A stretch of DNA of 64,000 bases, from IMG/VR virus record IMGVR_UViG_3300021963_000022; one strand, written 5' to 3'. Position 1 is the stretch's first letter; each line of letters starts with the position of its first letter. The notes beneath the pieces were generated by a model. That model made no database searches. It saw only the letters and a program-made list of their open reading frames with translations, and had not been told where the DNA came from. Both the position numbers and the translations under genes were made by a program. Origin of the DNA: a virus (taxonomy: Duplodnaviria > Caudoviricetes). This document shows, piece after piece, positions 34,301 through 63,598 of the stretch.

Positions 34301-35412
34301 TAGTAAGCAAGTATGTGCGCGGTGGATATGCATGGAAAGACTCACAAGTGTTTACGGTTACACAGCCGTTGTTTACTGAGGAAGATAACAATAGAGTTTG
34401 GGTAGCTATAAACGGTGAACGTTTAAGCCCAAGTAGCTTACGTTATATAACCGGCAATGGGTTAAATTTATTGACACCTATTATATCAACAGACGTTATT
34501 ACTGTTACTAGTATGATACCTAGTGCAACACCAAATGAATTGGTATATAATCTTACAGTTGATAAGAATGCAGACACTGCAGTCTATCGTAGTAATAATA
34601 ATACTTCTACGTGGTTAACACAAGACCTACTAATAACGGATGATACTATCTATGTTAATGATGCATCACGTATGGTTGATACTTTAGTACAAACTATTCA
34701 AGTACTTAACAATGGTACTAGCTTAGTAGCTCCGGTACAAGCAGATTACGCTACAGTGCGTGAAGTCACAGTTTATAATCAAAATACATTGTCACAATTA
34801 AATCCTAGTTCATATGCATTAGTAATTATTAATACTGCTACGGTAATAGAATTTAATAGTGAAGTGTCATTAGGTGATAGAGTAATTGTAACATTGCGTG
34901 TGGGTGAAATTTTAGTAATCAATAGTGAACGAATTAGATTCAATCTAATTGACTACACAAATAATACAATATCAGGTTTGACACGTGGAATTCAGGGCAC
35001 AGGTGCTCAGAATGTACATTCTACTTATTCACAAGTATTCAGTTTGATTCCTACTAATGAATTGTTTAAACCTTACTATTATCAGGTATGGGATGATATT
35101 GTGTTCCAAGATATAACAACTACTGTTACCAGTACGACACCTGGTGAATTTAAGTTCTTAATAGCTACTACACCTGATATTGTAAATGTAAAAGCCGGTG
35201 CTTCTATTGTTTTTGGAACTGACCCAACCGCATTTGACATAGCAACTAGCATTAAGGATCCTAACTATCCTACATTATGGATAATAAGAACTACCGGATC
35301 TCCTGCAGTAGTTCCCGGAGATGACGCTGTGATAACATATGTATATTCGGGTAATCCGTTGCAATTAAGCACAACAGATCCTGCAAGATTCTTAAAATCC
35401 GGTAATATTTAA
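19309..35412 (+). CDS. Giant (5367 aa) virion structural protein, baseplate wedge/fibre scaffold (gp7-position)
   Basis: Uninterrupted ORF after gp6; RTINFLPDIFKT start, FG-GAP-like propeller segments, BNR/WD-like S-x-DG-x-x-W repeats, W-x4-Y-x2-G carbohydrate-binding-like motifs. Confidence 0.75.
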   Translation: MVSRVRTINFLPDIFKTKANEQFLSATLDQLVSQPNTMKVQGYIGSKFGYGINAKDGYVVEPTKVRTDYQLEPSVVFLKKNTATAVDLLTYPGLIDALKLEGGITDQHDNLFSNQFYSWDSFTDLDKLINYNQYYWLPLGPELVTVSTNDVYSQTEFTVVPNGNYINFSADNLIVPGNNPTISLLRGGTYQFVVNQSSQFWIQGTPGLKGTDPVHTNIGTRNIYGLTNNGTSSGVMTFQVPFQSDQSYAFYPSTQSVDLLTTKSWDEINGMRVRDLGNIDGVVSLDGRTIVFYGNSPTAQGYIGEFYDEFSFDEDNPVVKPYEDGYYTDLNKNIYRISYVGDPDDPVIRVTEHATIVQLDRIKVLYGDEFAFNEVYTDALANMYIVPYLSALADTLYYQDGSNVDRVGVIKIIDAISNNQLNVNTQILGKKTFTSPNGVQFTNGLKVTFAGNIYPESYFGNEYYVEGVGTAITLLPVTNFIVPEPAGQAYYNPYSVSPYDTEAYDSASNVPLAKDYITISRNSYDRNAWSRSNRWFHVDVLRATAQYRGNEAPVVLEALNNSNFRAKRPIIEFYPNLKLYNQGSVSKGSVDFVDSVVTDPFGYDGSTPICSGATTFYPNSGTSAIPGGVKIVFTAAEDINVRNKVYLVTYSNITGSPTATPVITLTVAADGDVSANDQVVVTAGDYIGQTYHFNGTDWISGQFKERVNQAPLFDVFSSSGISFSDQEYYLGSSFRGCTLFEYALGTGSDDPQLGFPLKYSSLTNIGDITFNVTLNNQTFTYVEGSTPQSLSVDTGYVYKYIPTTATYARQLGWQTTVGESFQYQVFELIYNSGIPKFVCDVPYKDPESTPWPVTQVYVNNERLAPTAYTRTVDSQNSTIITLNTAPLPGAPVQVLIYSDIPSSVGYYEIPTNLQNNPFNTPVSNANLGDIRGHYKSICNNITTLVGAPFGANNYRDLGNLVPYGTRITQSSASLVPAAAFLRNQDFSIFNALTFNNNEYIKFKALLTDTINRTEYNRTYSDAYILDDALAQIAGTKDNSSAFFWSDMVPNGNKSASNSYTFVNFIKQSEFPLTRIYDFATANYYSVLLYVTRTTNGEVHTTQLLRGVDYDISTDAPKVIVYFDLLPNDVITIDEYSQTYGSFVPNTPSKMGLYPVSTPQVIYDTTYVTPTYFIKGHDGSLTKLYGEYTDGYLSDYRDRAYLEFEKRIFNNIKTSNVIPLTLPDIMPGEFRTTDYTYEEFQQIYSYGFLNWVGKNRIDYKTQYFDITNQYTYNYSQSINKSDYTPLKQGNWRGIYLWFYDTATPQSTPWEMLGFSEKPTWWETRYGVAPYTSDNLVLWNDLADGYVWNNGASYTIENRKRPGLLDVLPVDSSGNLVSPAISVVNAYDTNSINKNWKVGDVGPAEYGYLKSSSWPFDLMRMFALMKPAKFFALCIDVDSYEYNAEFNQYLENARLRSPLNDLPVYGNGTAVNSYVNWIVDYIQQLGMSGHDKVSDLVNNLDVRLAYRVAGFSDKDMLKFYVEKGSPNSKNNSLLIPDESYGVLLYNNQPFTKVVYSSVIIQKTINGYKVYGNSQNTAFFKTLVPKMNGNYDKYVVADVTIYVSKEYTDKTLIVPYGTEFYSVQALSEFLINYGRYLENDGMIFNNIENGIVENWEQMVAEAIYWTQSGWEAGSTVNVNPAATNLKINKESGIVQPLTFHQQNYVLNQNLIPIQVKDMSLIRNGTEFELNVLQNTDTFSYMTANISNYEHCIVFDNVTLFNDVIYNLVTGLRQERVLVKGVKSAEWNGQVDAQGFILNQDNIQEWQENIKYTKGVIVLYKNSYYTSTKIVQPSSTFNETEWVKTDYDSIQKGLLPNPSTRSYESLLYYDIHNTNLENDADLLSFSLIGYRPRDYLAVANLDDVTQVNVFINMIESMGTLGGANQLKNITVPQGQLGYDIYENWAIKTGEFGGVLNQNFIEFKLAENELTGNPGIIGVTNGIEVVEGVEQSVPLYSLTNYGRVLNNIAVLPTVDDISVKSLPDAGYVNFDDVKIHSYNFNGLYRANQPIEKLYNGDYIWLADYKGNWNVYTPVPLSTLTKQGIVLISVENNLTGTATLTFNKAHGLSKNDLIGVINFNEDIDGYYNVDKIISETSISITVTLQGATLKLRGSGVVFKLVTHRVDTPSDTTSLPILGQEFEKFKVWADQNSDGNWAVYERDDRYKYEDFNKPFFTTNFGSSAVYVPELGYLIGDTGEGKVYLYTYNPIAKQYLNTLEIDEGSNFGSSMETAGNTVVVAKTTSASSDIYVYSVVTEYGINQIIGQQVISLGGYCGYSMALSGDTDWLYISDNTNNKVYIYQLDADYTRTNTTYPLDGNVTAGSNTFVVNGNRTSTFVSGTKVSFSSADYSPVYTIISSKWDIVLNKTTITLGKEIQTNIITATATYIATTNYTSCGYIDLPDSSADDNFGSQVTTNHDGSMVFINSPNREYDGEYETWAPSTTYTAGTVLLNSGTYYKVLADAPGALTFSLIASYVSELKDIGYVYAFERLTQTYEQQYNALPLVPTLFTTIWSSSTLHPTPFLYLNGVKLIDGADYAIVTDTVTVDTQVNAGDIITVSSSEFVLKQVLSYYDTISDSQNNTEFGYGLDTNKYGNEVLGGSPYIINSDGQEGAVFRFTDGGKKYGMIIGTTNASLSSPTPILINGFEVTVSGTAAEIATTINNTHINNVVAYNSNGILVIGLRDVSLNPIGNKLSITVTDKTILEELGIAPYTKTQRIEEIYSGTRTQFGAAIRCNELSSFVVSAPVTTRRAITRFDYIDDNQNNDTIFDNDFTTFIDGFANAGAVYMYDYLPKYNENINNPGQYVFAQSCNDVTEDYGYEPNYGQALFFGGYRVLIGTPNFDSTAYNGRLVIYKNAENKADWSVHRSSSLVVDIDKLQGVQLYNNLDNTTLTSLDYIDPLQGKLLGAVRENIDVVSSSDPAGYNINNVSTNVVWGAGHVGTIWLDVSGMRFVNYHQNDVVYNSEYWGKVFTGSDVAVYSWIESTETPAFYTGTGTPYDLEKYASTVILDSAGNLIAKYYYWVRDTGIVFTKKGKTLADVILETYIEDPQGSGISYFAPYTPNVFGLYNAREYLNTTNTSIHIGFSTGTNDDVAHNEYQLIREGYAGDFLNGIPSAANSYSEPTSLYNRLLDSMAGLDEAGLLVPNPYLPKLLQRGISSRPSQSFFVDRFTALKNYLTYANEVMASFPIVESKSPTFLTKVGAVNPSNDLPFYDTSNVWEYVDWWAVGYDNNTKTAFDVPKYYNLAELNPVEGLLVGVETNSDGKREVYIYQNSTWNRIGLQDGTIQFKSILWDYGSNRLGFGNFFDTTPFDSFPSQETRNVIRALNEEIYTDDLLINRNVSLILLLKYIESENIESQNYLPWLNKTSFIDVAHTIRELREYEKFQRDNVDFLSGYINEVKPYHVVIKDFYLKYSGVNVYQGDITDFDLPSMYNKDNEQFITPTLKFDSTTGDAEFLPTASIWDTPEYASWYQNYGLVITGQLNTYVGKIKRQLTTVSNTILIGNTFGFPVQGLIRIDDELITYTGVNRELGILTGASRGYNGTTVSSHDYNSSVYMDIPGVVVYDTARGYVDPPIINAVIDTSIYPAPRVPARFRAVMQVDKVIGVDVLNPGEGYVVTPRLEFQSSMSIDFTNFDINYIDSTITIQSTAFVTGDCLEYSTSNFNVTGLTEHSHYYIRILTSNVIESIIALYYTKNDAMVNSNRVILFDSGNTVNAKLSMTPRAEVIMGRSGVRSIKPILKFDRTSYRPLVEEWVPGNFYGSGLNILNSSSSEMLAIAQPYEDMPKVNRGVTNAALFVVQNVLMGSYFDVTEITEPGLGYSVGDTIVVPGTDMDSTWASPGNDCTITVATVDIAGAITSVTVAGSPGLVTRSSLQGALFPILGVTSVGGQANVTLDFSISGLDSSKLKNLNLYFYNTLPPYTYDDSAAGGAVIKVYRPKFTPSKVLNEYVITIINNGAIYNAGQKITILGSVLGGVNVVNDATITITSVTSLNAIQTAFVSGVAVGGFRSYYVTPISSTTIKIFNDINMTIPTPVASFPYTVGDQGFVNDPALATSSSSYNYTNYVVYKDKIFKCVQDTNSRTFLYDQWEEVDSNLELFNALDRIVGYYQPTSDMPGKNLQGLVKGITYTNNTYYGNQFAPEDQYPLDINLKGQYFYPAYVDIRSITYDGTQYVAVGENDSNSVVLKSTNGTTWSIAIISEQPLDVRDIVYDSTAGAYVITSYNSTTPVLISFDAITWASSGPFTPYDIGGYDDDPFDRTSINLSNMQMVGDTYGNGLYVSVGNRYIITSDNGISWEKRFDFGDTTRTLNAVSYANLTAFDGFVAVGGHTSTSTGSGTITYGDIVISYDGVNWTYLTPPLTGYKLYGVAADSTYIVAVGESGVTYYTTNGSNWVTGQVLSSADFYDLVYANGLFVAVGEGGEIYTSTDGQVWTSSTSGVTDNLKGVYYNGTQYVAVGDNSTILFSSDAITWTKVGLLQQNAPFYDVQGSSFDYGYAPEEMVAGVVSDNLSMYVKSRPSGSWDYQTYQHTGFSMVSRVASPDVNNTVSFDGLVDIPATVSVFVVDPITLIGNRIYESTSVTNINYTYTVDWTNKTITLDNALTSNETILIEVYEVGGGSQLAKDSTDNVPLRINNINGFSEIHLGYKYDSQIYFTPICFLNGVKLTYISDFYLDTTSQGTTKISFNDTYVQGVDYITYTIFGNTVSTGQPEQYGFSIPETQVIVADGTATSWALDNFVYYISPLDTASQLSVNDTAIVEINGIRKTTPADLTYNITPNISAIISVSAANAFSFVIATYPDIDKVVAGSNITFGSDPTLYPITASNVDPGDSSLWTLTTTGAPSVLPGTGVVVSAIIVFDTAPSADDIVAVTTFNDTRQQALVLDTDTNFEVNQIYYINNSITPVQLVLANPIGSGAWANGTMIRIDGIEGSVQLNNNIFYVKQNTTNTYALFLDPATTTPLQSKLVSKYVRGGYAWKDSQVFTVTQPLFTEEDNNRVWVAINGERLSPSSLRYITGNGLNLLTPIISTDVITVTSMIPSATPNELVYNLTVDKNADTAVYRSNNNTSTWLTQDLLITDDTIYVNDASRMVDTLVQTIQVLNNGTSLVAPVQADYATVREVTVYNQNTLSQLNPSSYALVIINTATVIEFNSEVSLGDRVIVTLRVGEILVINSERIRFNLIDYTNNTISGLTRGIQGTGAQNVHSTYSQVFSLIPTNELFKPYYYQVWDDIVFQDITTTVTSTTPGEFKFLIATTPDIVNVKAGASIVFGTDPTAFDIATSIKDPNYPTLWIIRTTGSPAVVPGDDAVITYVYSGNPLQLSTTDPARFLKSGNI

Positions 35413-51502: not shown

Positions 51503-52111
51503 ATGCCGTATAAAACAGATATATTGGGATGGATGGTTGAGTCCGAGTTAAAAGTCTTAGAGACTATTGCAAAACAAGTTCCTGTCAATGGAAATATTGT
51601 AGAAGTAGGATCAATGTTTGGTAGAAGTGCTGTTTGCTTTGCAATGTCAGCAGATCCCAGTGTTACCATCAATTGTATTGACTATTTTCCTACTGATATG
51701 AGACAACAGCATGGTTGTTCAGATGAGGATTCAATTAAAAACAGTTTCCCTATTGCTGATAAACTGTATAATGTTGAGCAAGACTTTATAGAGAATACCA
51801 AAGAGTTTAAGAATATCAATATGATAAAGGGTGATAGTCCGCATATATTAGTATATACTCCTGATCCTATTGATTTGTTTTTCTTAGATGCAGGGCATGC
51901 CAATCCTAATGATTGGGACAATTTATGTCACTTCATACCCTATATGAAATTGAATGGTATTATTGCAGGACATGATTATCACCCTACACAGTTCCCTGAT
52001 GTATGTGAGAATGTTAGACGATTAGAAGAATTATTTGATATTAAAGCGGAATTATATCCCGGCTCAAGTATTTGGTCTATAAAAGTGACTAAATTAATAA
52101 ATAAAGTATGA
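51503..52111 (+). CDS. Class I SAM-dependent methyltransferase (Methyltransf_24-like)
   Basis: IVEVGSMFGRSA, IDLFFLDAGH, IAGHDY. Confidence 0.85.
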   Translation: MPYKTDILGWMVESELKVLETIAKQVPVNGNIVEVGSMFGRSAVCFAMSADPSVTINCIDYFPTDMRQQHGCSDEDSIKNSFPIADKLYNVEQDFIENTKEFKNINMIKGDSPHILVYTPDPIDLFFLDAGHANPNDWDNLCHFIPYMKLNGIIAGHDYHPTQFPDVCENVRRLEELFDIKAELYPGSSIWSIKVTKLINKV

Positions 52112-52203
52112 AAACTTTTGTTTTGTTAGTTATAGGAGTCTGTATTGCTGTATGTATATACTGGCTAATGGACTGGCAAAGTCACCATGAAGATGGTGAG
52201 TAA
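52108..52203 (+). CDS. Putative single-TM peptide (31 aa)
   Basis: MKTFVLLVIGVCIAVCIYWLMDWQSHHEDGE; TAAATA at 52098-52103 just upstream; overlaps the tmRNA acceptor region. Confidence 0.5.
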   Translation: MKTFVLLVIGVCIAVCIYWLMDWQSHHEDGE

Positions 52204-52552
52204 AGTTATTGCTGTACGAAGCAAAGAGAAAAGTGTCTTGGAAGGGGGTGCGAATCCCCCCAGGTCCACCATAAGGAAGTTTATGAATATTGAATGGTAT
52301 CACGTATTGTTATGTTTAGCAGTTCCGCTAAACTACTTTTACTGGATAGTATTACATAGATTCTTTATGAAGGGCCTGATATAGATTCGACAGGGCAACA
52401 AGTAAATTAGTGGACAGCTCGGCAAAGCAGAAGCCGTTAGGGTTGGGGGAACTCGGCCGTAGAAGCAAAAAAGTAATCGCAAACGATTCACAATTCCTAT
52501 TGGCAGCAAACGCCTAATAGCGAGGTAGTTATACCTTGTAACCAAAAATAGC
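52182..52552 (+). ncRNA. ssrA: Circularly permuted (two-piece) tmRNA
   Basis: T-arm GGGGG-TGCGAAT-CCCCC plus CAGGTCC-ACCA (ends 52271) lies upstream of 5' acceptor strand GGGCCTG-ATATAGATTCGAC (starts 52372), with a G3-U70 pair. Resume codon GCA at 52479 gives ANDSQFLLAANA*. Outer ends approximate. Confidence 0.9.
52283..52384 (+). CDS. Hydrophobic 33-aa ORF inside the tmRNA intervening sequence
   Basis: AAGGAAG RBS then MNIEWYHVLLCLAVPLNYFYWIVLHRFFMKGLI*. Confidence 0.5.
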   Translation: MNIEWYHVLLCLAVPLNYFYWIVLHRFFMKGLI

Positions 52553-52576
52553 ATAGGGACTTCGGTCCCTATTTTT
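52553..52576 (+). terminator. Intrinsic terminator after tmRNA, probably bidirectional
   Basis: ATAGGGAC-TTCG-GTCCCTAT-TTTT with AAAAA upstream. Confidence 0.85.
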
Positions 52577-52688
52577 CTGGGTATTGCCATGTCCAAGTAC
52601 CGTCTTTTCTGTATAAGCGTTTTCTTCCTGTGACGGTAGCAGATAATTTTCCTGCGCTTTTTCTTCCATTTTCGGCAGCAGTAGGCAA
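52569..52688 (-). pseudogene. Probable C-terminal remnant of a homing-endonuclease-like gene
   Basis: LPTAAENGRKSAGKLSATVTGRKRLYRKDGTWTWQYPEK*; no RBS, in-frame stop just upstream; resemblance recalled from memory only. Confidence 0.4.
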
Positions 52689-52782: not shown

Positions 52783-53085
52783 ATGAGCAATGAACTAGCA
52801 AAATATATAAATTCTCGTCGCCGTTTCCGTGATGAAACTGCAGTCAAAAAACAAGTTAAGATTGCAAAAGCGCATGGTCTTACTAATAAAGATAAAGCTA
52901 TAAAAGAACCACATCGTTTAGCTAAACATCATGCAATGGATTGTGGTCAACCAGGATGTATGCTTTGCGGTAACCCTCGCAAAACACATAAAGATAAACT
53001 AACTGCACAAGAAAAACGTATGTATCAGGATGTAGATAAAACTAACGATAAACATAGCAATGGAATTAAACCGGAAGATATATGA
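52783..53085 (+). CDS. Basic Cys/His-containing hypothetical protein
   Basis: HRLAKHHAMDCGQPGCMLCGNPRK; start set at 52783 from promoter spacing. Confidence 0.75.
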   Translation: MSNELAKYINSRRRFRDETAVKKQVKIAKAHGLTNKDKAIKEPHRLAKHHAMDCGQPGCMLCGNPRKTHKDKLTAQEKRMYQDVDKTNDKHSNGIKPEDI

Positions 53086-53477
53086 CAACAGTATTTGTTA
53101 ACGGAACATTTGACATTCTTCATTTAGGTCATATCGGCCTACTTGAACACGCTAAAAGCTTAGGTGATGAACTTATTGTCGGTATCGATAGTGATGCTAG
53201 AGTAAAAGTATTGAAGGGTGAAAATAGACCCATCAATACTGAAAGAGAACGAGGATTAATGCTACTTGCAACCAAGTATGTAGACAAGGTATTTGTATTT
53301 GATACAGATGTAGAACTAACTGAATTAGTTAGTACATGTGATATTATGGTTAAAGGCAGTGATTATGTAGGTAAACGTATCATTGGTAGCGAAGTATGCC
53401 CTCAGCTTGTATTTTTTGATCGAATAGATGAATACTCAACCACACAAAAAATTCAAAATATTATTGATCGGGGATAA
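53082..53477 (+). CDS. Heptose-1-phosphate nucleotidyltransferase (HldE/RfaE domain II, HldC-like)
   Basis: NGTFDILHLGH, VGIDSD...KGENRPIN, KGSDY, STT. Confidence 0.85.
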   Translation: MTTVFVNGTFDILHLGHIGLLEHAKSLGDELIVGIDSDARVKVLKGENRPINTERERGLMLLATKYVDKVFVFDTDVELTELVSTCDIMVKGSDYVGKRIIGSEVCPQLVFFDRIDEYSTTQKIQNIIDRG

Positions 53478-54192
53478 TTGTTTAGATGTATATCAATTTG
53501 GAATAGTTGATAGACTAAGCCCCGAAGCTCCTGTACCTATATTTGTTCCTCTTTACAAAGAAGAACGCAGTGGTATGGTTGGCAACGTATATAACAACTT
53601 AGTTAACTTAGATTGTGACGTAACATTATATTCAGGTAGCACAAGTGTTAAGACCAGAATGATTGATGCTAGAAGCAAACAACAAATCATTCGGGTAGAT
53701 AATGATATAATATCTGAACCATTGACGATTGATGATATCAATATTGAGCATGATGCTATTGTAATCAGTGACTACAATAAAGGGTTAGTATCATATGAAT
53801 TGATTGAAAACATATTAGCAGTAGCTAAATGCCCCGTGTTCATTGATACTAAATTAACTGATTTAGAACGTATGCAAGGTGCATGGGTTAAAATTAACAA
53901 CCTAGAATACAGTAGGATTAAAAGTGAATGTTCAGGTCTAATCGTAACTAATGGTGCACGTGGTGCTAGTGTAATATATCACGATATACAATGTCCTGCT
54001 ACTAAAGTAGAAGTTGTTGACGTTACTGGTGCGGGAGATACTTTCTTATCAGCATTAACATATCAATATCTAGTTACTAAAGATATAAAATCAGCAGTTG
54101 AATTTGCCATCAATGCATCAAGTATAACTGTACAACACTTGGGCGTTTATGCACCAACACTAAATGAAATAGAAATAGAGGGACTTAGATGA
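53428..54192 (+). CDS. PfkB-family heptose-7-phosphate kinase (HldE/RfaE domain I, HldA-like)
   Basis: RLSPEAPVP, KTR...QQIIRVD, SDYNKG, DVTGAGDT. Confidence 0.85.
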   Translation: MNTQPHKKFKILLIGDNCLDVYQFGIVDRLSPEAPVPIFVPLYKEERSGMVGNVYNNLVNLDCDVTLYSGSTSVKTRMIDARSKQQIIRVDNDIISEPLTIDDINIEHDAIVISDYNKGLVSYELIENILAVAKCPVFIDTKLTDLERMQGAWVKINNLEYSRIKSECSGLIVTNGARGASVIYHDIQCPATKVEVVDVTGAGDTFLSALTYQYLVTKDIKSAVEFAINASSITVQHLGVYAPTLNEIEIEGLR

Positions 54193-54545
54193 GATTAGAA
54201 GGGTTTGTAGAAAAAGGTTGGGGACATGAATTTATCTTTGCTACTAATGATAAGTATTGCGGTAAAATTCTATCCTTCAATAAAGATGCAAAATTCAGTA
54301 TGCATTTTCATGGTGAAAAAGATGAAACATGGTATGTGTTAACTGGGGAATTTATCGTAAGACACATTGATACTACTAATGCAGAAATTAATGAAACAAA
54401 GTTAACTACAGGGGATACATGGCGTAATCTTCCTTTATTCCCACATCAAATTATATGCATAGAAGAAGGTGTTATAGTTGAAGTTAGTACACCGGATAGT
54501 GTAGAAGATAATTACAGAGTCATGCCCGGAGATAGTCAAAAATGA
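54189..54545 (+). CDS. Cupin-fold sugar isomerase-like protein
   Basis: KGWGHE, SMHFHGEKDETW, PH, EVSTPD...DNYR. Confidence 0.75.
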   Translation: MRLEGFVEKGWGHEFIFATNDKYCGKILSFNKDAKFSMHFHGEKDETWYVLTGEFIVRHIDTTNAEINETKLTTGDTWRNLPLFPHQIICIEEGVIVEVSTPDSVEDNYRVMPGDSQK

Positions 54546-54835
54546 AATACATAGTAGATATAGATGGTACAATATGTACTGTAACCAACGGTGATTATTC
54601 AAACGCGGAGCCTTATCTATCACGCATAGCACATTTTAATATGTTATATGATGCGGGAAATGAGATACATTATTGGACAGCACGTGGTGCTAATACTGGA
54701 AAGAATTGGGATGATATTACATTAATGCAGTTAGCCGATTGGGGCGCAAAATACACCACTGCTAAAACAGGTAAGCCTGCATATGATATATGGATTGATG
54801 ATAAAGCATTTAACATAGGAACATATTTCAAATGA
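54542..54835 (+). CDS. Small HAD phosphatase (capsule-biosynthesis EcbF/BcbF-like)
   Basis: VDIDGTIC, WTARG, KP..D..IDDKA. Confidence 0.8.
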   Translation: MKYIVDIDGTICTVTNGDYSNAEPYLSRIAHFNMLYDAGNEIHYWTARGANTGKNWDDITLMQLADWGAKYTTAKTGKPAYDIWIDDKAFNIGTYFK

Positions 54836-55584
54836 AAATATTATTAACAGGATATAAAGGATTCATTGGCTCTAACATGCTCAAAATGTTAGACGGTCAT
54901 GAAGTTGTAACATATAACTGGGGTGATGCATTACCTTCAGTTGCAGGATTAGATTGGGTCGTCCACATGGGCGCTATCAGTAGCACTATTGAACGCAACA
55001 TTGAAAAGATTATGTTACAGAATTACGATTTTAGCTGTTGGCTATTGAATGAGTGCATTGCAAACAACGTAAACTTTCAGTATAGTAGTTCAGCAAGCAT
55101 ATATGGATTGAGTACAGAGTTTGTTGAAACTAGTCCAGTCGATCCTCGCACACCTTATGCTTGGACAAAGTACTTGTTTGAACGTTTTGCTAATAGAGAA
55201 TGCAATATACGTATACAGGGTTTTAGATACTTCAATGTGTATGGTTCAGGTGAAGAAGAAAAGGGAGATCAAGCTAGTCCTTTCTATAAGTTTAAAAAAC
55301 AAGCAGAAGAAAACGGATTTGTTAAATTATTTGAAAACAGTCAGCACTATAGACGAGACTTTGTCCCAGTAAAACAAGTATGTCAAACACATATTGATTT
55401 CTTTAATGTAAAAGAATCAGGTGTATGGAACGTAGGTACAGGAACACCTATGAGTTTTTATGATGTCGCTAAACAATTTACTGATAACATCATAGAGATA
55501 CCCTTACCTGATATACTAAAAGATAGTTATCAAGAATTCACATGTGCAGATATGACTAAAACCAATACATCATTGGGTAGATAA
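54832..55584 (+). CDS. hldD: ADP-L-glycero-D-manno-heptose 6-epimerase-like SDR
   Basis: TGYKGFIG, HMGAISST, QYSSSASIYG, YAWTK, FRYFNVYG, RRDFV. Confidence 0.8.
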   Translation: MKILLTGYKGFIGSNMLKMLDGHEVVTYNWGDALPSVAGLDWVVHMGAISSTIERNIEKIMLQNYDFSCWLLNECIANNVNFQYSSSASIYGLSTEFVETSPVDPRTPYAWTKYLFERFANRECNIRIQGFRYFNVYGSGEEEKGDQASPFYKFKKQAEENGFVKLFENSQHYRRDFVPVKQVCQTHIDFFNVKESGVWNVGTGTPMSFYDVAKQFTDNIIEIPLPDILKDSYQEFTCADMTKTNTSLGR

Positions 55585-56345: not shown

Positions 56346-57473
56346 TTATCCTTTATATTGTATAAATGCAACGCCGATGCGTTGCGGAAAGTAGCTGAAG
56401 GTAGATCCACTTAAAGTATGGCTGTGACTCCAACCATAATTACTGTGAAATGCTGACGGGCCACTTACATTTGTGGTGTACAATTGATAACTGGCACTGT
56501 GATAGTGGGGAGTATAAGGAGCATCTGTACTACTTAAAGCACCGACAGCATTGCTAGCAGTAGTGACATCCCATTGATTATCACTATACCCAATAATATA
56601 TCCGCCTAAATTAGGTGTACCGTTTAACCCATTACATAATTTCCAATATGTCGGTAATGCTGTTAAAATGCCAACATACATAATAATTATATCAGATTCT
56701 GGAAGACTGGGTGAAGTTAGTTTCCATAAGTTAACTAATTTACTTCGAATAGTTGATTGTGAGAAAGTTCCAAAAGCAGTATGGCTATGTGCTCCAGCAT
56801 AAGCCATATTATAGTTACGTATAGCTGATCCAGTGCCCATAGGTCTATAAGCACTACTGGCTGAAGCGTGATAGTGACCACTATCTGAACTTAAACTAAC
56901 TGGTATTGTAAAACTATAACCAGTACCTGTAGTACGAGTTAAATTGTCATTAGCACCATGCAAATAGTTATATCCTGTATCTACAAAAGGTGTCGAATTA
57001 GCCGCTGCATTTTGTTTTGTTACTAAAGTATTGGTGGGGAAATAAGTAGTAGCTCTAATGGATCGTAATAAATTAATTTTTTGTTTATTAAGCATTGTAT
57101 CGGTATTATCTGTTCTTCCGCCGGAAAAGGAGTGATTATGTGAAGAGGCGCCCGCACTCGCAGATGGTGCAATAGAACCTCCTGTATTACTAGTAACATT
57201 TTGAGTTACTGTTGATCCGCTGTGAGAACCTGCAAAACTTGTGGAACCATTGGCACTCATTCCTCCACTGACAGAGCTATAAGTAATATCTATTTGACTC
57301 TGATCTTGAGCTGACCAGATATAATAGCCATCTGCCTTACTATAACGAGTCCAGTCACCTGATGTCATATTTGCCATGGTATCATAATATGGTACTACAG
57401 CATTAGCTGGGATATGGATTGGCGGACTTGGCGGACCTGGATTAGTAAAAAAACCTGCTCTGGCTGCAAACAT
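56346..57473 (-). CDS. Distal fibre/adhesin with collar-like segments and HxH motifs
   Basis: LPTYWKLCNGLNGTPNLGGY; HNH, HYH, HSH, HYH, HSH. Confidence 0.7.
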   Translation of the reverse strand: MFAARAGFFTNPGPPSPPIHIPANAVVPYYDTMANMTSGDWTRYSKADGYYIWSAQDQSQIDITYSSVSGGMSANGSTSFAGSHSGSTVTQNVTSNTGGSIAPSASAGASSHNHSFSGGRTDNTDTMLNKQKINLLRSIRATTYFPTNTLVTKQNAAANSTPFVDTGYNYLHGANDNLTRTTGTGYSFTIPVSLSSDSGHYHASASSAYRPMGTGSAIRNYNMAYAGAHSHTAFGTFSQSTIRSKLVNLWKLTSPSLPESDIIIMYVGILTALPTYWKLCNGLNGTPNLGGYIIGYSDNQWDVTTASNAVGALSSTDAPYTPHYHSASYQLYTTNVSGPSAFHSNYGWSHSHTLSGSTFSYFPQRIGVAFIQYKG

Positions 57474-60400
57474 TATTCGTATCCTTTACTCAATGTAGCA
57501 TAGTATGCACTACCGTCGTAGAATACTGAAATAATATCTATTGATTCTGCCGCTGTACTCAACGTCTTACTATTAGCGGCAAACTTTATATTTGAAGTCA
57601 TTACTCTACTTCCCGTTGCATCTTGTTTAATAATAATTGTTGCTGAACTACCTGTAGTAGCACCGGTTAACCCATTAAATGTAAAGTTAGCATTTGCAAT
57701 AAAGTTAAAGATTGTCCCGTTAGCTACGTTAGGAGAAATAGCTGCACCTGTATTAACAGGTGATAACACTGTTTCAGTATATGATTTAAGTGTTATAAGA
57801 TTGGCTCCTATATTATTGGCAACCAAATTACCAGACACACCTAAACCAGTTAACGTACCAACACTTGTAATACTAGTTTGAGCACCATTTGTTACTGTGG
57901 CTGCAGATGTTGCTGCCCCAGTTAAGTTTCCGACAAAAGTCTTAGCGGTAATAGAAGTATTACTTAAGTTAGCAGTAATATTTGTATTAATAACTGCCGA
58001 TGCATTTCCATTACTGCTTGAAGTACTAAATGTTAAATATGCTGTAGTACTAGTTGATGTGTTTTGTAATAATGCCGCGGCATTTGTTGCGCTTACTGCA
58101 GTTGTTGCACTAACACCGGTTAACAAACTTCCGTTACCGCTAAAGAAATTAGCAGCCACATGATTACCTAAGTTAGCATTACCTGCAAACAGATTACCAC
58201 TGAGATCCACGTCAGTAAATGATGCAATATTAGGTGTTGATCCACCAATAATACCTTGAACAGGTCCAAATATTGATCCATTAATATTACCTGCGTCTAT
58301 ATTACCGGTTACGGTCAATGTACTCAAATTACCTACACTAGTAATGTTAGGTTGAGCCGCAGTAGTTAATGTACCACCTAGATAATTTGCTGTTGCAAGA
58401 TTTCCTAAGTTAGCATTTTTTGCTAAAATATTACCTGCTGATGAGACACTAAATTGAGAAGTGCCGCCAACCTTTGCATCAATTAATAATGAGGAAGCAA
58501 GTGACTTTGTGTTAGTAATACTAAGCTCAACTGCAGTAAATCCAATGTTAGCATTATTCCATGTCTGACTAAAACTTATTGGTGCAGTATCAGTAAGTGA
58601 TCCTGAAGCAACAATTAACTTAGTTAAGTTACCGGTGCTTGTAATATTAGGTTGAGCATTAGTTGTTACTGTATTTGCATTGATAGCTGTAACACCAGAT
58701 AATAAATGACCATTACCGCTAAAGAAATTAGCGGCTACATAATTACCTAAGCTAGCATTACCAGCAGTAAGATTACCAGTAACGACTAGACTTGTTAAGT
58801 TACCAACACTTGTAATGTTGCCTTGTGCTGCCGTTGTTACTGTACCTGCTGTTGTTGCACTAGTTGCGGTTGTTGCACTAGTTGCGGTTGTTGCACTAGT
58901 TGCGGTTGTTGCACTACCTGCACTAGTTGCATAATTCGCATTAGCTACTGTACCGGTTACTCTATTACCTAATATATTAGTTAAGAACGCACCGTTACCA
59001 GTAAAGAAATTAGCTGATACATTATTACCTAAACTAGCATTACCTGCTGTAACCGTTCCAGTCACACCCAAACTAGTCAGTGTACCTACACTAGTAATAT
59101 TAGGTTGAGCATTATTGCTTACTGTGGTTGCTGTTAAATTACCAACAGTTAGTGTACCTACGTTTGCAACATCAAAATATCCAGTAACAGTAGTACTTGA
59201 AGATTCTATTACCCTTCGTTGTGCTATAACAGAAATAGATGATACGTTAGCACCGCCGCCTGCACTAGTAACTAGATCCGGAGTAACAGTTAATATCACG
59301 TTGCTACTAGGATTTGCAGTTACATTAGTGATAGAATATGTTTTGTTAAGTGATATACTGTCACCTATTGCGCCTGAAATAATTAATTGATCACCTGTTT
59401 TTAACTTACTAGCTACGTTGTATTGTCCTAAAGTCAATGATGTTGGTGAACCCAATGTAATTGTAGCAGCACCTGCATTATCAGCGGCACTAATAAATGC
59501 AACTTTATTGCTGTTAGATAATTCATTTTGCTGGATATAAACATTACCACTAGTGAATACATTAGCTAATGTACCTACACTAGTAATGTTAGGTTGTGCA
59601 TTTGTATATACTGTACCTGAAATTGAAGCGTTAGGTACTTGTCCAGTTAGTTCACCGGCTGATATATTAGTTAGACCTGCTCCATTACCTACAAAATAGT
59701 TAGCACTGACCACATTACCTAAATTAGCATTTAGAGTTGTAAGATTACCTGTAATGTTTGCGTCACCGGCAACTGTTAATGAAGTTAAATTACCTACAGA
59801 CGTAATATTAGGTTGAGAGTTTACAGTTATGTTGCCTGCATAGTTTGCATAATTTGAAAATGCACCTGTAGGGATATTAGATAGTAGACTACCGTCACCT
59901 AAGAAGTACGTACCAGTTACGTTACCTGATTTAGTTACTTTGAATTTAGAAGTACCACCTACCTTCATGTCAATCAATGTAGAATTAACACTGCTAGTAG
60001 TATCTGTTATAGAAGCACTGATAGTATTGAATGTAACAGCACCGTTCTGCCAAGTCTGTACAATTGATAATGGTTTATCTGCAGTCAATGATCCGGACGC
60101 AATAGACAATCCTGTTAGATTACCAACAGATGTAATATTTGGTTGAGCATTAGTTGTTACTGTATTAGCAATATTTGCATTACCGGTGCTGTTAGAATAC
60201 GTGCTGTATGTTGCAAAGTTTGCATTAGGTATCTCACCTACTAAATTGCTTGCTTGTAAGTTAGATAGATTACCACCCTCACCTATGAATACGTTAGAAA
60301 CAACTACACCCGTTTTGTCTACTGAGAATGTTGATGAGCCGTCTACTTGTAAATCTAATAATAATGAGCTTGGATCACTTGCACTATCTACTATATTTTG

Positions 60401-63400
60401 ACGTATACCTGTAAATACCTCAGTACCATTACTCCAAGTTTGTATAAACGTATACGGTGCATTTGATGATATAGTACCTGTATTAGCTCTTAGGTTAACT
60501 AAGTTACCTACGCTAGTAATATTTGGTTGAGCGTTAGTAGTAACCGTAATAGCTGTATTAGCTACATTAGTATTTCCCGAATAAGCCGCATAGTTTGCAT
60601 TAGCAATTAATCCAGTGATATTACCTGCAGGAATGTTAGTCAATCCTGCACCTGAACCGGAATAAGATGTTCCGGTAACTCCACCTAACTTGTCAACTTT
60701 GAATTTAGTTGTGTTATTTACTTGTAAGTCTAATAATAAACTATTAATATTACTAAAGGTATCCGTTATGTTTGTTCTTAAATGTGTAAATGTAACACCA
60801 GAGTTATTCCATGTTTGTGTAAAATATACAGGAGTATTAATTGTCACTGGACCAGTGGTAATGTTAGCTAGCTTAACTGTTAATGTTCCTGAAGCCTCGT
60901 TAAATGTAAAATTAGAATTGGTACCAAGCACTCCACTATCATTATAAATAATTTCTCTGTTACTACCCGGGGCAAGAACATTACCACTAAAGTTACCTAT
61001 CAAATTACCTATGAAGTTAGTAGCAGATACGTTACCACTCTTTTCTACAGTAAACACGCTTGAAGTGTTTACTATCATGTCAATCAATTTGCTATCTACT
61101 ACACTAGCGTCGTCAGTAACATTAGCCTCTAATAATGTAAACAGTCTATTAGCATTATTCCAATGTTGTGTTAAACGTACCGGGTTGCTTCCCGTTATCT
61201 CACCTGTATTCACTGTCAATGTAGTTAAATTCCCTACACGGGTGATGTTAGGTTGATATGCATTACTTACTGTATCGGCTCCACCGGTATACTGGGCATA
61301 ATTTGCATTTGGCACATAACCAACTAAGTTGGCTGCAGGAATATTGGTTAACTGACTACCGTTACCAATATACTGATTAGCAGTTACTATACCTGTTTTG
61401 TCAACTTTAAACTTGCTTGTGCCACCTACTTGCAAATCTAGTAATAATGATTCTCCTGCACTGTTAGTATCAACAATATTTTCTTTAATACCAGTGAATA
61501 CTGCGCTAGCATTATTCCATGTTTGTGTAAACGTTAAAGGAGCACTATTAGTAACTGTCCCGTTAGCTATATTTAAACTGGTTAGTGTTCCGACACTTGT
61601 AATATTGGGTTGTGCGTTAATTGTAACAGTACCAGCCGTTAGTGCAGACGTAGAATTACCTATTATGTTACCTAAGAAATAGTTAGCACGAACATTACCA
61701 TAAGATACAAAAGTCACTACATCACTAGTTACACTAACGTTACTACCGAATGCAAATTCACTATTGCTATTATCCCAACCCATGAATGCATCAACTGCTG
61801 AGTCTTTAAAGTAATGTAATAATGATCCTCTATCTTTGCCGTCATCACCGCTTAATGGCGTACCATTAGGATTTCCACCCATCTCAATGATAGGATCTTT
61901 GATGTTAAATGTAGTTACATTAGCATATTGTGTACTACCGGTCACAATCAAGTTACCATTAATTGTTAATCCAGTTAATGATCCTACTGAAGTAATATTG
62001 GGTTGAGCGTTAGAAGTAACAGTACCTGCAGTATCGGTAGAACCGGCAGATCCATCGATGCTCACACCAGATAATGATAGAGATCCTGATGCCCTACCTA
62101 ACGAAACTGCAGTGGTACCTAAATATACATTAGTATTTGCTAATACATCAGTAGATAAAGTACCTACTAATGCATTGCCGGGTATACCAGTTAGTAATGA
62201 ACCATTACCTCTATAAAAGTTTGCAGATACATTACCTGCAAAGTTTGCATTAGCATTTCCTGATATACTACCGGATAAGTTTAGACTTGTTAATGTACCT
62301 ATACTAGTAATATTAGGTTGAGCATTAGTAATTACAGTACCTGCAGTATTAGATTGTCCATATAGTCTAGCTTGAACAATGTTTGCGCTAAAGTTTCTGT
62401 TAGTATCACGTGATACTATTGTACTAGCAACGTTGCTAGGAGTAGCTGATAAACCATTTAACAATGATGCATTTAAATTAGCTACTAGCGTGTTACTATA
62501 AACAACAATAGGTGCTGTGCCGGTAGCAAGTGTGCTGATAAATTGACCAACAATGGATACATTATCACCTGTTAAGTTACCATTTGTTGTAATATTTCCG
62601 TTACTACTGCTAAGTGTAGTACCACCTAAGTCAATAGTGTTTGCAGAAATATATAAAGTTCTCCAACGTGCATTGGGTGTACCGATATCAAATGCCTGAT
62701 CCTCAGATGGTATTAGGTGACCTGTTATTTGACCATTAATGCTAAGTGAACTTAGTGTTCCTAAACTAGTGATATTAGGTTGACTAGGCGTAGTTAATGT
62801 ACCCGTAAGTCTGTTTGCAATAATAACATTGCTTATGTTTAGATTTCCTGCACTAACGTTACCGGTAACGTTAGCATTACCTAACATTGTAACATTAGTA
62901 AATGTAGCTAAGTTTGGTGTTGTTGCACCGATTAAACCGTTGTATGGTCCAAATGTAGATGCATTAATGTTACCGGCATTGATATTACCGCTTACTACTA
63001 AGTTAGAGATCGTACCTAAACTAGTGATGTTAGGTTGTGCGGCAGTTGTTACAGTACCTGCTTTGTTAGCTGTATTTGAAAAACTTGCGTAATTTGCAGT
63101 TAGTGAATCACCTGCAAAGTTAGAATAATTAGCGTTAGTTGCATAATTTGCATTGGCAACACTACCTGCAACATTGCCACCCGAAATATTAGTTAATCCA
63201 GCACCATTACCTGAAAAATTAGTAGCAATAAGCGTATCCGTAGCAGTGTTAAATGTTAAATTTGCACTACCTTCAAAATATCCTGCATTGTTAAATTGTA
63301 CTTGTGTGTTAATGCCACCGGGAACTACTGCCCCTCCAATAGCTGTCCATGATAGATTTCCGTTACCGTCAGTAGTAAGTGAGTAGTTTGCCCCACCCCC

Positions 63401-63598
63401 TGTAATAATTACATCACCAACATTGCCTAGATGTACTTGATTAGTTACAGATAAATTTGCTGTAGTAAATGAATCAACTGCAACACTACTGGCTCCGGAT
63501 CCAACACGATTCCATACTCCCGGAGTACTGTCGTATTCGTATATTACACCATTGATTGTTACTTGCTGTCCGTTTGTGGGGTTTGCTGGCCAACTCAT
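57473..63598 (-). CDS. Long tail fibre (2041 aa), N/T/S/G-rich repeats
   Basis: WPANPTNGQ...WNRV anchor; repeated TVTTNAQPNITSVG units; C-terminal KQDATGSR...SIDIISVFYDG domain; late promoter and AAGGA RBS. Confidence 0.85.
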   Translation of the reverse strand: MSWPANPTNGQQVTINGVIYEYDSTPGVWNRVGSGASSVAVDSFTTANLSVTNQVHLGNVGDVIITGGGANYSLTTDGNGNLSWTAIGGAVVPGGINTQVQFNNAGYFEGSANLTFNTATDTLIATNFSGNGAGLTNISGGNVAGSVANANYATNANYSNFAGDSLTANYASFSNTANKAGTVTTAAQPNITSLGTISNLVVSGNINAGNINASTFGPYNGLIGATTPNLATFTNVTMLGNANVTGNVSAGNLNISNVIIANRLTGTLTTPSQPNITSLGTLSSLSINGQITGHLIPSEDQAFDIGTPNARWRTLYISANTIDLGGTTLSSSNGNITTNGNLTGDNVSIVGQFISTLATGTAPIVVYSNTLVANLNASLLNGLSATPSNVASTIVSRDTNRNFSANIVQARLYGQSNTAGTVITNAQPNITSIGTLTSLNLSGSISGNANANFAGNVSANFYRGNGSLLTGIPGNALVGTLSTDVLANTNVYLGTTAVSLGRASGSLSLSGVSIDGSAGSTDTAGTVTSNAQPNITSVGSLTGLTINGNLIVTGSTQYANVTTFNIKDPIIEMGGNPNGTPLSGDDGKDRGSLLHYFKDSAVDAFMGWDNSNSEFAFGSNVSVTSDVVTFVSYGNVRANYFLGNIIGNSTSALTAGTVTINAQPNITSVGTLTSLNIANGTVTNSAPLTFTQTWNNASAVFTGIKENIVDTNSAGESLLLDLQVGGTSKFKVDKTGIVTANQYIGNGSQLTNIPAANLVGYVPNANYAQYTGGADTVSNAYQPNITRVGNLTTLTVNTGEITGSNPVRLTQHWNNANRLFTLLEANVTDDASVVDSKLIDMIVNTSSVFTVEKSGNVSATNFIGNLIGNFSGNVLAPGSNREIIYNDSGVLGTNSNFTFNEASGTLTVKLANITTGPVTINTPVYFTQTWNNSGVTFTHLRTNITDTFSNINSLLLDLQVNNTTKFKVDKLGGVTGTSYSGSGAGLTNIPAGNITGLIANANYAAYSGNTNVANTAITVTTNAQPNITSVGNLVNLRANTGTISSNAPYTFIQTWSNGTEVFTGIRQNIVDSASDPSSLLLDLQVDGSSTFSVDKTGVVVSNVFIGEGGNLSNLQASNLVGEIPNANFATYSTYSNSTGNANIANTVTTNAQPNITSVGNLTGLSIASGSLTADKPLSIVQTWQNGAVTFNTISASITDTTSSVNSTLIDMKVGGTSKFKVTKSGNVTGTYFLGDGSLLSNIPTGAFSNYANYAGNITVNSQPNITSVGNLTSLTVAGDANITGNLTTLNANLGNVVSANYFVGNGAGLTNISAGELTGQVPNASISGTVYTNAQPNITSVGTLANVFTSGNVYIQQNELSNSNKVAFISAADNAGAATITLGSPTSLTLGQYNVASKLKTGDQLIISGAIGDSISLNKTYSITNVTANPSSNVILTVTPDLVTSAGGGANVSSISVIAQRRVIESSSTTVTGYFDVANVGTLTVGNLTATTVSNNAQPNITSVGTLTSLGVTGTVTAGNASLGNNVSANFFTGNGAFLTNILGNRVTGTVANANYATSAGSATTATSATTATSATTATSATTAGTVTTAAQGNITSVGNLTSLVVTGNLTAGNASLGNYVAANFFSGNGHLLSGVTAINANTVTTNAQPNITSTGNLTKLIVASGSLTDTAPISFSQTWNNANIGFTAVELSITNTKSLASSLLIDAKVGGTSQFSVSSAGNILAKNANLGNLATANYLGGTLTTAAQPNITSVGNLSTLTVTGNIDAGNINGSIFGPVQGIIGGSTPNIASFTDVDLSGNLFAGNANLGNHVAANFFSGNGSLLTGVSATTAVSATNAAALLQNTSTSTTAYLTFSTSSSNGNASAVINTNITANLSNTSITAKTFVGNLTGAATSAATVTNGAQTSITSVGTLTGLGVSGNLVANNIGANLITLKSYTETVLSPVNTGAAISPNVANGTIFNFIANANFTFNGLTGATTGSSATIIIKQDATGSRVMTSNIKFAANSKTLSTAAESIDIISVFYDGSAYYATLSKGYE
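58851..58916. repeat. Perfect 18-bp tandem repeat (3 full copies plus 12 bp)
   Basis: GTTGTTGCACTAGTTGCG at 58851, 58869 and 58887, partial at 58905; encodes (ATSATT)n. Confidence 0.95.

Follow-up and report, generated by a model that had tools for sequence, protein, structure and literature searches.

The 64,000-nt stretch of DNA analyzed here, to which we refer as the window, comes from a T4-like phage that encodes gp46/47-like SbcCD proteins, a gp55-like late sigma factor and a baseplate hub, and its DNA is represented in several studies of lake and freshwater metagenomes. The single RNA gene in the whole window is that of a permuted tmRNA, the two pieces of which are separated by an intervening sequence (IVS). 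Segments of this kind have hitherto been treated as throw-away spacers, and the one in the window contains an open reading frame (ORF) headed by a Shine–Dalgarno (SD)-like motif. Two questions are raised by this arrangement: (i) is the ORF a gene, or an accident of a short and structured loop and (ii) if it is a gene, how might its translation be combined with maturation of the tmRNA that surrounds it.

The boundaries of the IVS follow from two kinds of annotation. ARAGORN places the permuted tmRNA gene at 52179–52608 on the plus strand (as are all features described below), with the 3′ tRNA domain, which terminates in CCA, at 52233–52271 and the 5′ one at 52372–52398. The IVS therefore extends from 52272 to 52371 and is exactly 100 nt long. 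The Rfam model RF04321 (tmRNA_permuted) matches positions 52210–52517 over its full length of 1–213 (101 bits, E = 1.6e-18, gathering score 47) and aligns 52272–52371 as an insertion relative to the model. Both results agree with the 100-nt spacer of the original prediction. The tmRNA itself was the only Rfam match in the region, and hence there is no intron fold.

The acceptor piece (52210–52271, from the RF04321 model start and ARAGORN) holds the T-arm, the 3′ acceptor strand CAGGUCC and the terminal ACCA. The coding piece opens with the tRNA-like domain at 52372–52398, whose acceptor strand GGGCCUG pairs with CAGGUCC; the acceptor pairs are invariant in 6/6 homologs, including a U·G at the third pair that corresponds to the alanine identity pair G3·U70. 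Farther downstream, ARAGORN identifies a tag reading frame at 52479–52520 with a GCA resume codon, the product ANDSQFLLAANA and two stop codons. A hairpin resembling an intrinsic terminator (52553–52572), followed by a T-run to 52580, would close the tmRNA transcription unit. Inspection of the DNA upstream of and beside the tmRNA gene revealed neither a T4-late TATAAATA box nor a convincing sigma-70 site. Based on the rules for tRNA and tmRNA processing, RNase P is predicted to cut at 52371/52372, and the IVS would be removed on maturation.

Within the IVS, the SD-like sequence AAGGAAG (52273–52279) lies 3 nt ahead of an ATG (52283–52285) that opens a 33-codon ORF (52283–52384). The TAG stop codon (52382–52384) is located 13 nt into the tmRNA coding piece. 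The motif, the length of the ORF and the position of its end inside the mature 5′ piece had all been pointed out in the original prediction, and each proved exact when the sequence was re-read. The same frame is open upstream, and the ORF caller accordingly gives a 65-aa ORF from 52187. We rejected the ATG at that position as the start, because it lacks an SD and the homologs described below begin at the SD-led ATG. A further upstream ORF, encoding 31 hydrophobic residues (52108–52203), has no homolog among the loci that we fetched. The exact leader TAAGGAAGTTT plus ATG recurs in 14 viral contigs, where it stands ahead of unrelated ORFs of 39–82 codons.

About 3% of shuffles of the window IVS yield an ATG-initiated ORF that fills 89% of the IVS, as the natural one does, so the window by itself is only suggestive and comparative data are decisive. 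Metatranscriptome contigs cover the conserved tmRNA pieces, mostly from relatives of the phage, and do not cover 52290–52346; the RNA runs carry only small shares of the window DNA, and these data are silent on expression.

For the comparison we used as a probe a 22-nt word from the acceptor arm, which was picked without regard to the IVS and matches more than 119 IMG/VR contigs. The 120 loci examined comprise 119 of these contigs and Xanthomonas phage X1, and ARAGORN reports a permuted tmRNA in 92 of the 120. Motif-based extraction recovered the IVS from 109 of the 120 loci and from the window, giving an ORF-agnostic sample of 83 distinct IVSs of 25–491 nt. An IVS was scored as coding if one of its ORFs starts within the first 30 nt, is no shorter than 20 codons and occupies at least 65% of the IVS. 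By this measure coding IVSs are found in 1/10 cases below 60 nt, 4/21 at 60–79 nt, 15/29 at 80–119 nt, 10/11 at 120–199 nt and 10/12 at 200 nt or more, so that 35 of the 52 IVSs of at least 80 nt are coding. The modal position of the start codon is 12 nt after the CCA. An SD-like triplet precedes the ORF in 30/40 coding IVSs, and is present in the first 11 nt of 6/43 non-coding ones. In a set of 60 distinct IVSs of at least 80 nt, which is somewhat enriched because it takes in loci fetched later by their leader-plus-ATG pattern, ATG-initiated ORFs filling at least 70% of the IVS occur in 37/60 on the sense strand and 4/60 on the antisense strand.

In the full set of loci, Pfam assigns three IVS products to families: a thioredoxin in L156 (PF00085, 73.7 bits), a GNAT protein in L079 (PF13508, 28.5 bits; PF00583, 26.6 bits) and a CxxCxxCC protein in L094 (PF03692, 26.6 bits). 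Each of these three genes is located inside a full-length RF04321 match. For three loci with a 382-nt IVS (L054, L063 and L085) the assignment as tmRNA comes from the motif match alone, with L054 falling below the Rfam gathering score. Xanthomonas phage X1 has a 126-nt IVS without an SD-led ORF, and when cultured phages were searched by blastn with the window tmRNA region and the L159 tmRNA, the matches, in Xanthomonas phage X1 and Pseudomonas phages, were all short and limited to the T-arm.

The IVS and the tmRNA that flanks it do not share one history. In L113, L036 and L088, the tmRNA flanks are 94–97% identical to those of the window, and the IVS is either unrelated or, at 25 nt, without cargo. 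Conversely, the IVS of L009 is 97% identical to that of the window and the coding piece only 78%, with a tag of 27 aa, and L165 carries the peptide family of the window in a tmRNA with a different acceptor stem. Given these discordant histories, the IVS behaves as an exchangeable cargo slot. We also note that metagenome DNA contigs match both tmRNA pieces with joints that skip or replace the IVS; these joints fit relatives with other IVSs and are no independent proof of exchange.

The tmRNA lineage is a phage lineage, because the acceptor-arm 22-mer is confined to only 2 of 185,579 species genomes and both occurrences are on phage-like MAG contigs. These contigs contain tRNA clusters, and one of them (L161) has a coding IVS. 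No bacterial donor was found among the species genomes by means of the acceptor-arm word, and a search among viral contigs for relatives through the methyltransferase-like protein encoded upstream was also negative.

The window peptide has homologs both inside and outside tmRNA genes. IVS-borne copies in L009 and L024 have 94% amino acid identity to the window peptide and share its position and its leader; those of L154 and L123 are 76–77% identical, and L164 (P0002) has an ORF of the window type in its tmRNA IVS, in each case with the position and leader unchanged. More distant IVS-borne versions occur in L003 and L083, with 31% identity and a one-residue indel, and an L003-like version is found in L165–L167 (P0005), where the tmRNA is of beta type with the acceptor stem GGGGAUG. 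We considered L165 as a potential bacterial locus on account of its CSD and AhpC neighbors, but the 15-kb context, with RNR genes, NUMOD3, HNH and many small ORFs, is that of a phage.

A peptide-pattern search also identified 24 viral contigs (L124–L147), tmRNA-free according to ARAGORN, that encode a free-standing version of 29–30 aa with its own SD and the core AVPLNYF(F/Y)WIV; free-standing copies taken together span 29–31 aa, and the corresponding motif in the family as a whole is AVPLNYFxWIV. A profile search of 1.84 billion cluster representatives yielded only eight small clusters at E ≤ ~1e-6, all of 29–51 aa. Neither the window peptide nor its homolog from L125 matches PHROGs at E ≤ 0.01; Pfam was searched with the longer cargo ORFs only. 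On these sequence comparisons, the peptide belongs to a small family that is found only in phages.

The pattern of substitution in this family is that of a protein-coding sequence under constraint. Between the window and L024 there are three synonymous changes and one conservative non-synonymous change (NG86 dN/dS 0.06), and the ratio for the window and L154 is 0.20. Relative to the free-standing copies, synonymous divergence is near or at saturation (pS 0.64–0.96) with pN of ~0.3, and dN/dS is 0.13–0.26 where dS is computable. Variable sites at codon positions 1, 2 and 3 number 14, 7 and 21 of 26. A comparison of related spacers for retention of the ORF and its SD and for dN/dS had been proposed as a check on the ORF, and both are retained in L009, L024, L154 and L164, and distantly in L003, L083 and L165, with ratios of 0.06–0.26. 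As judged from these comparisons, the window ORF is very likely a real, selected gene.

The predicted properties of the product are those of a small membrane peptide, as had been suggested at the outset. The Kyte–Doolittle maximum is 2.04 over 17 residues and just 1.58 over 19, and AlphaFold models a single helix from residue 3 to 32 (pLDDT 83). The hydrophobic core is followed by His–Arg and Lys.

Where homologs are free-standing, their neighborhoods point toward lysis. In L125 and L140 the gene is one of several small membrane-protein genes in a row, and a nested Rz/Rz1-like spanin pair follows ~0.8 kb downstream (PHROG E-values of 2.8e-8 and 5.3e-5 in L140). In L162 and L163 a distant member (P0007) overlaps the start of a gene for an 86-aa holin-like protein with two TM segments, past which are genes for a 164-aa membrane protein and then an endolysin (PF00959, Phage_lysozyme). 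Thus, two different phage backgrounds place the family in lysis modules; this link rests on the neighborhood of distant homologs (45–52% identity) in other phage types. The window copy itself is outside a lysis cassette, inside the tmRNA and between sugar-pathway genes. For the suggestion that the peptide is a holin regulator there is support of an indirect kind: free-standing homologs do lie near spanin, holin-like and endolysin genes, but there is no PHROG match and the window copy is not part of a lysis cassette. A role in lysis timing or in some other inner-membrane function, as distinct from membership of a holin family, is conceivable from the gene contexts and we put it forward tentatively.

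The second question concerns the RNA in which the gene is embedded. The minimum free energy (MFE) fold of the IVS has an energy of −40.2 kcal/mol (z = −3.99), and 0/200 shuffles are as stable. In this fold the IVS is closed by a helix of 22 bp, formed by 52270–52292 and 52347–52369, which stacks under the acceptor stem and is topped by an apical 7-bp hairpin at 52314–52333. The 5′ strand of the closing helix contains the SD, the AUG and codons 1–4 of the ORF, which are thereby buried, and the 3′ strand contains codons 22–29. The helix is conserved in six homologs, with three compensatory pairs in which both sides have changed. In L164 a G·U has become a G–C pair at the cost of a Phe-to-Leu change in the peptide. 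The 8-bp stem that was first reported to close the spacer (AUAAGGAA/UUCUUUAU, with one G·U) is present, but it is merely the base of this longer helix. The accompanying idea that translation would compete with precursor folding is in keeping with the conserved helix, in which the SD and AUG are base-paired to the 3′-terminal part of the ORF. Taken by themselves, an SD and AUG within so stable a helix argue for weak initiation.

Our preferred interpretation, drawn from the sequence and its homologs, is that the window IVS probably encodes a 33-aa membrane peptide with a single helix, within a pre-tmRNA that has two uses, and that the gene occupies an exchangeable slot. Because the gene sits in the IVS, the pre-tmRNA transcript would double as the mRNA for the peptide. 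In this tmRNA lineage the slot is laid out with an SD 1–3 nt past the CCA, a start codon ~12 nt past the CCA and an ORF that fills the loop. We envision transcription of the tmRNA together with, or immediately following, the plus-strand genes upstream of it, termination at the 52553–52572 terminator and reading of the peptide gene from the pre-tmRNA. Ribosomes could bind at the SD while the 3′ strand of the helix is yet to be transcribed, or during breathing of the helix.

A ribosome reading to the TAG at 52382–52384 would hold both the closing helix and the acceptor stem open. After its release, the RNA could refold, whereupon RNase P and 3′-end trimming would free the two tmRNA pieces and the IVS would be discarded. 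With the acceptor stem held open by a ribosome until 52384 is reached, any one molecule would undergo either translation or RNase P/CCA maturation, or the two in succession. As the stop codon is located past the predicted RNase P site, the excised IVS could not be a complete mRNA.

The position of the stop codon suggests a tighter connection. Were RNase P to remove the stop, which lies 10–13 nt past its site, a non-stop message would result whose product is tagged by tmRNA and degraded, as in the regulation of ArfA, and the amount of peptide would reflect, or be controlled by, how fast the precursor is processed and how much trans-translation the cell can perform. The geometry needed for this is real, with a stop at 52382–52384 and a predicted 5′ end at 52372. 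An in-IVS stop is absent from all nine distinct IVS-borne members of the family (the window, L009, L024, L154, P0002, L003, L083, P0004 and P0005), down to 31% identity, whereas the free-standing copies stop 5–7 residues past the helix. There is also a precedent, in that the mRNA of E. coli arfA is known as a non-stop message that trans-translation represses (PMC10107115).

Other features of the lineage fit this scheme less well. Of 40 cargo ORFs, 26 have their stop codon within the IVS, and in 14 of these the stop falls exactly 1 nt short of the IVS end, with the sequence UUCCUUA of the 3′ helix strand coding for Ser–Leu ahead of it; overrun is therefore not a general design of the slot. Within the peptide family, the stop is at +13 in the window, L009 and L024 and at about +34 in L154 and L164, and positions of +39 or further also occur. 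As the stop positions differ in this way, overrun that is tolerated explains the data at least as well as overrun that is selected, and the divergent C-terminal tails are likewise what mere tolerance predicts. Translation of the unprocessed precursor, moreover, accounts for the observations without any coupling. We thus regard the regulatory version as unlikely, and equally unlikely its extension to overrun-class IVS genes in general, in which a stable peptide would be made only from unprocessed precursor or when trans-translation is saturated, and the tmRNA precursor would act as an ArfA-like sensor tying a lysis-linked peptide to ribosome rescue.

Sequestration of the SD and AUG in the 22-bp helix (z = −3.99) can also be read as a sign that the ORF is a passenger, captured from a free-standing gene of a lysis cluster, intact for now and untranslated or nearly so from the IVS, which would serve just as an RNA helix joining the tmRNA halves. 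ORF-less IVSs of 25–80 nt do work in close relatives of the window, among them L088 with flanks that are 94–95% identical, and the S23p ORF of Coxiella, reported as not synthesized in vivo, provides a precedent (PMC4990558). A decaying passenger would not, however, be expected to retain its frame, SD and ATG in every IVS-borne copy down to 31% identity, nor to show dN/dS of 0.06–0.20 among those copies. The SD-like motif also tracks the presence of an ORF across the lineage (30/40 versus 6/43). Finally, any sequence could build the helix, yet AVPLNYFxWIV, which is encoded in the unpaired and apical part of the IVS, is invariant. On balance, an untranslated passenger seems quite improbable.

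That an AT-rich, structured 100-nt loop is open in one frame by luck is very improbable indeed, since the shuffle rate given above and the abundance of short hydrophobic ORFs in AT-rich DNA are set against homologous genes outside tmRNAs at near-saturated or saturated synonymous divergence, a 37 to 4 excess of sense over antisense ORFs and a fixed start position and SD.

If the IVS is a translated gene slot, as the reading of a peptide gene nested in a dual-use pre-tmRNA would have it, then a single phage transcript serves both as stable-RNA precursor and as mRNA, with the same helix contested by ribosomes and by the enzymes that process tRNA. Annotation pipelines that mask tmRNA genes would systematically miss small phage genes, many of them for membrane peptides but also for a thioredoxin and a GNAT protein. 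The conserved tmRNA halves would in that case serve as recombination anchors for the swapping of cargo between phages. With the window case, a connection of a tmRNA-borne peptide to the lysis modules of phages becomes open to test, and its geometry could also tie the yield of peptide to processing or to the capacity for ribosome rescue.

Two-piece tmRNAs are known in phages, including the OM43 phage Melnitz and pelagimyophages, and 53 of 133 unique phage tmRNAs are of this type (PMC9004378). The window tmRNA resembles these permuted tmRNAs of aquatic T4-like phages and others (PMC9004378, RF04321, RF01849, RF01850, PMC11915505) in its order of acceptor piece, CCA, IVS and coding piece, in its G3·U70 stem and GCA-starting tag frame and in belonging to a T4-like aquatic phage genome. 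According to a tmRNA database paper of 2025, the IVS is by definition missing from the mature tmRNA, and the only unusual IVS contents listed there are a tRNA-Ala gene and a repetitive element (PMC11915505). In the permuted tmRNA literature that we searched the IVS is a discarded spacer, whereas in the window, as in roughly half of the longer IVSs of the lineage, it appears to be an SD-led protein-coding gene; a full-text literature search found no description of protein-coding IVSs in tmRNA genes. The group I introns that carry homing-endonuclease genes in the T-loop of some tmRNA genes are similar in placing a protein gene within a portion of the tmRNA gene that the mature RNA lacks (PMC11915505). 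Those introns are self-splicing and mobile, their ORF serves their own mobility and their exons are religated (PMC11915505). The window IVS, in contrast, has no intron fold, and the cargo of the lineage consists of ordinary phage genes such as those for membrane peptides, a thioredoxin and a GNAT protein.

Besides these introns, the nearest parallel is the IVS of the Coxiella burnetii 23S rRNA (PMC4990558), where a protein ORF likewise occupies a helix-closed segment that is cut out of the precursor of a stable RNA with no rejoining of the flanking pieces. That IVS is excised by RNase III, whereas the ends of the window IVS are of the tRNA type (RNase P and CCA, as predicted). The Coxiella ORF, S23p, is reported there as decaying and not synthesized in vivo. 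By comparison, the tmRNA-IVS ORFs keep their SD and ATG, show purifying selection and comprise many unrelated families swapped between conserved flanks.

The resemblance to E. coli arfA is conditional: if RNase P cuts before translation ends, the window mRNA would be stop-less and thus a tmRNA substrate. In arfA (PMC10107115), the cut that truncates the mRNA falls in a hairpin within the reading frame itself, and it is the shortened protein that is active; truncation in the window is only predicted, and the nuclease would be RNase P.

In form, the window peptide is like the small single-pass proteins of phage lysis cassettes (holins, antiholins and lysis regulators), with a short hydrophobic helix and then basic residues, and its free-standing homologs, like those proteins, adjoin holin-like, endolysin and spanin genes. 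At 29–33 aa the family is shorter than typical holins, and the window peptide differs from these also in lacking a PHROG family match and in lying outside a lysis cassette. Relative to the systems described above, what the window case adds is a cargo family whose free-standing homologs are located in lysis modules and whose IVS-borne ORFs consistently run on into the mature tmRNA.

The excised intervening sequences (IVSs) of these permuted tmRNAs can encode short, strongly hydrophobic peptides. At least six unrelated families of such peptides, 23–41 aa in length, are found at this site, with members in the window and in the related loci L034, L036, L080, L002, L022 and L003. A maximum Kyte–Doolittle hydropathy of at least 1.6 is reached by 10 of the 26 distinct IVS products of 45 aa or less, but by 0 of the 19 longer products, and these counts suggest that the slot is biased towards membrane peptides.

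The slot also holds genes for recognizable proteins. A thioredoxin (L156 5365–5610; PF00085, 73.7 bits), a GNAT domain protein (L079 3185–3517) and a CxxCxxCC metal-binding protein (L094 3004–3261) are each encoded by an entire gene that lies within an IVS and is enclosed by a full-length match to the Rfam permuted tmRNA model RF04321. Five IVS proteins of 101–151 aa (L015, L079, L119, L061 and L054/L085, the last assigned to a tmRNA by motif match) have the N-terminus MRI(K/N)E(I/L) in common and diverge in sequence beyond it. In four of these five, the start codon lies 24 nt after the CCA and is preceded by a conserved leader, AATAAATACTAG, in which no obvious Shine–Dalgarno sequence is seen.

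A second conserved membrane peptide, of 30 aa and with the C-terminus CSY(I/M)(I/V)(V/L)WA(F/Y)P, is found alongside free-standing members of the peptide family of the window in three phage backgrounds (L125 814–906, L140 769–861 and L162 2625–2717). Another hydrophobic ORF, of 31 codons, is located upstream of the window tmRNA (52108–52203), where it overlaps the stop codon of a methyltransferase-like gene through an ATGA and ends 7 nt short of the tmRNA model start. No homologue of this ORF was found among the fetched loci.

In the genome collection, the phage tmRNA acceptor arm has only two matches, both on short contigs from metagenome-assembled genomes (MAGs; L160, Crocinitomicaceae, and L161, Haliscomenobacter). 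On L161 there are a cluster of tRNA genes and an IVS that encodes a 23-aa hydrophobic peptide resembling that of L034. Both contigs are likely to be of phage origin and to have been placed in bacterial MAGs by binning.

Elsewhere in the window are a single ORF of 5367 codons among the structural genes (19309–35412, + strand) and one of 2041 codons (57473–63598, − strand). Downstream of the tmRNA, overlapping sugar-nucleotide genes form a run (53082–55584) comprising, as judged from motifs, a cytidylyltransferase-like protein, a PfkB-type kinase, a cupin, a small HAD phosphatase and an epimerase, which together look like an ADP-heptose-type pathway.

At 27–31 residues, the tags of several permuted tmRNAs from phages are unusually long, for example ANVNKTVTVSGKNLKFSARSAKEALAV or ANADTFE... 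(L009 5013–5467, L165 597–1047, L048, L039, L111, L117, L064 and L078), and some of these tags do not have the usual LAA ending. Most tags in this phage tmRNA lineage end in ALAA, whereas the window tag (frame 52479–52520) ends in LLAANA followed by two stop codons; with the additional Asn-Ala, its C-terminal degron may be recognized differently.
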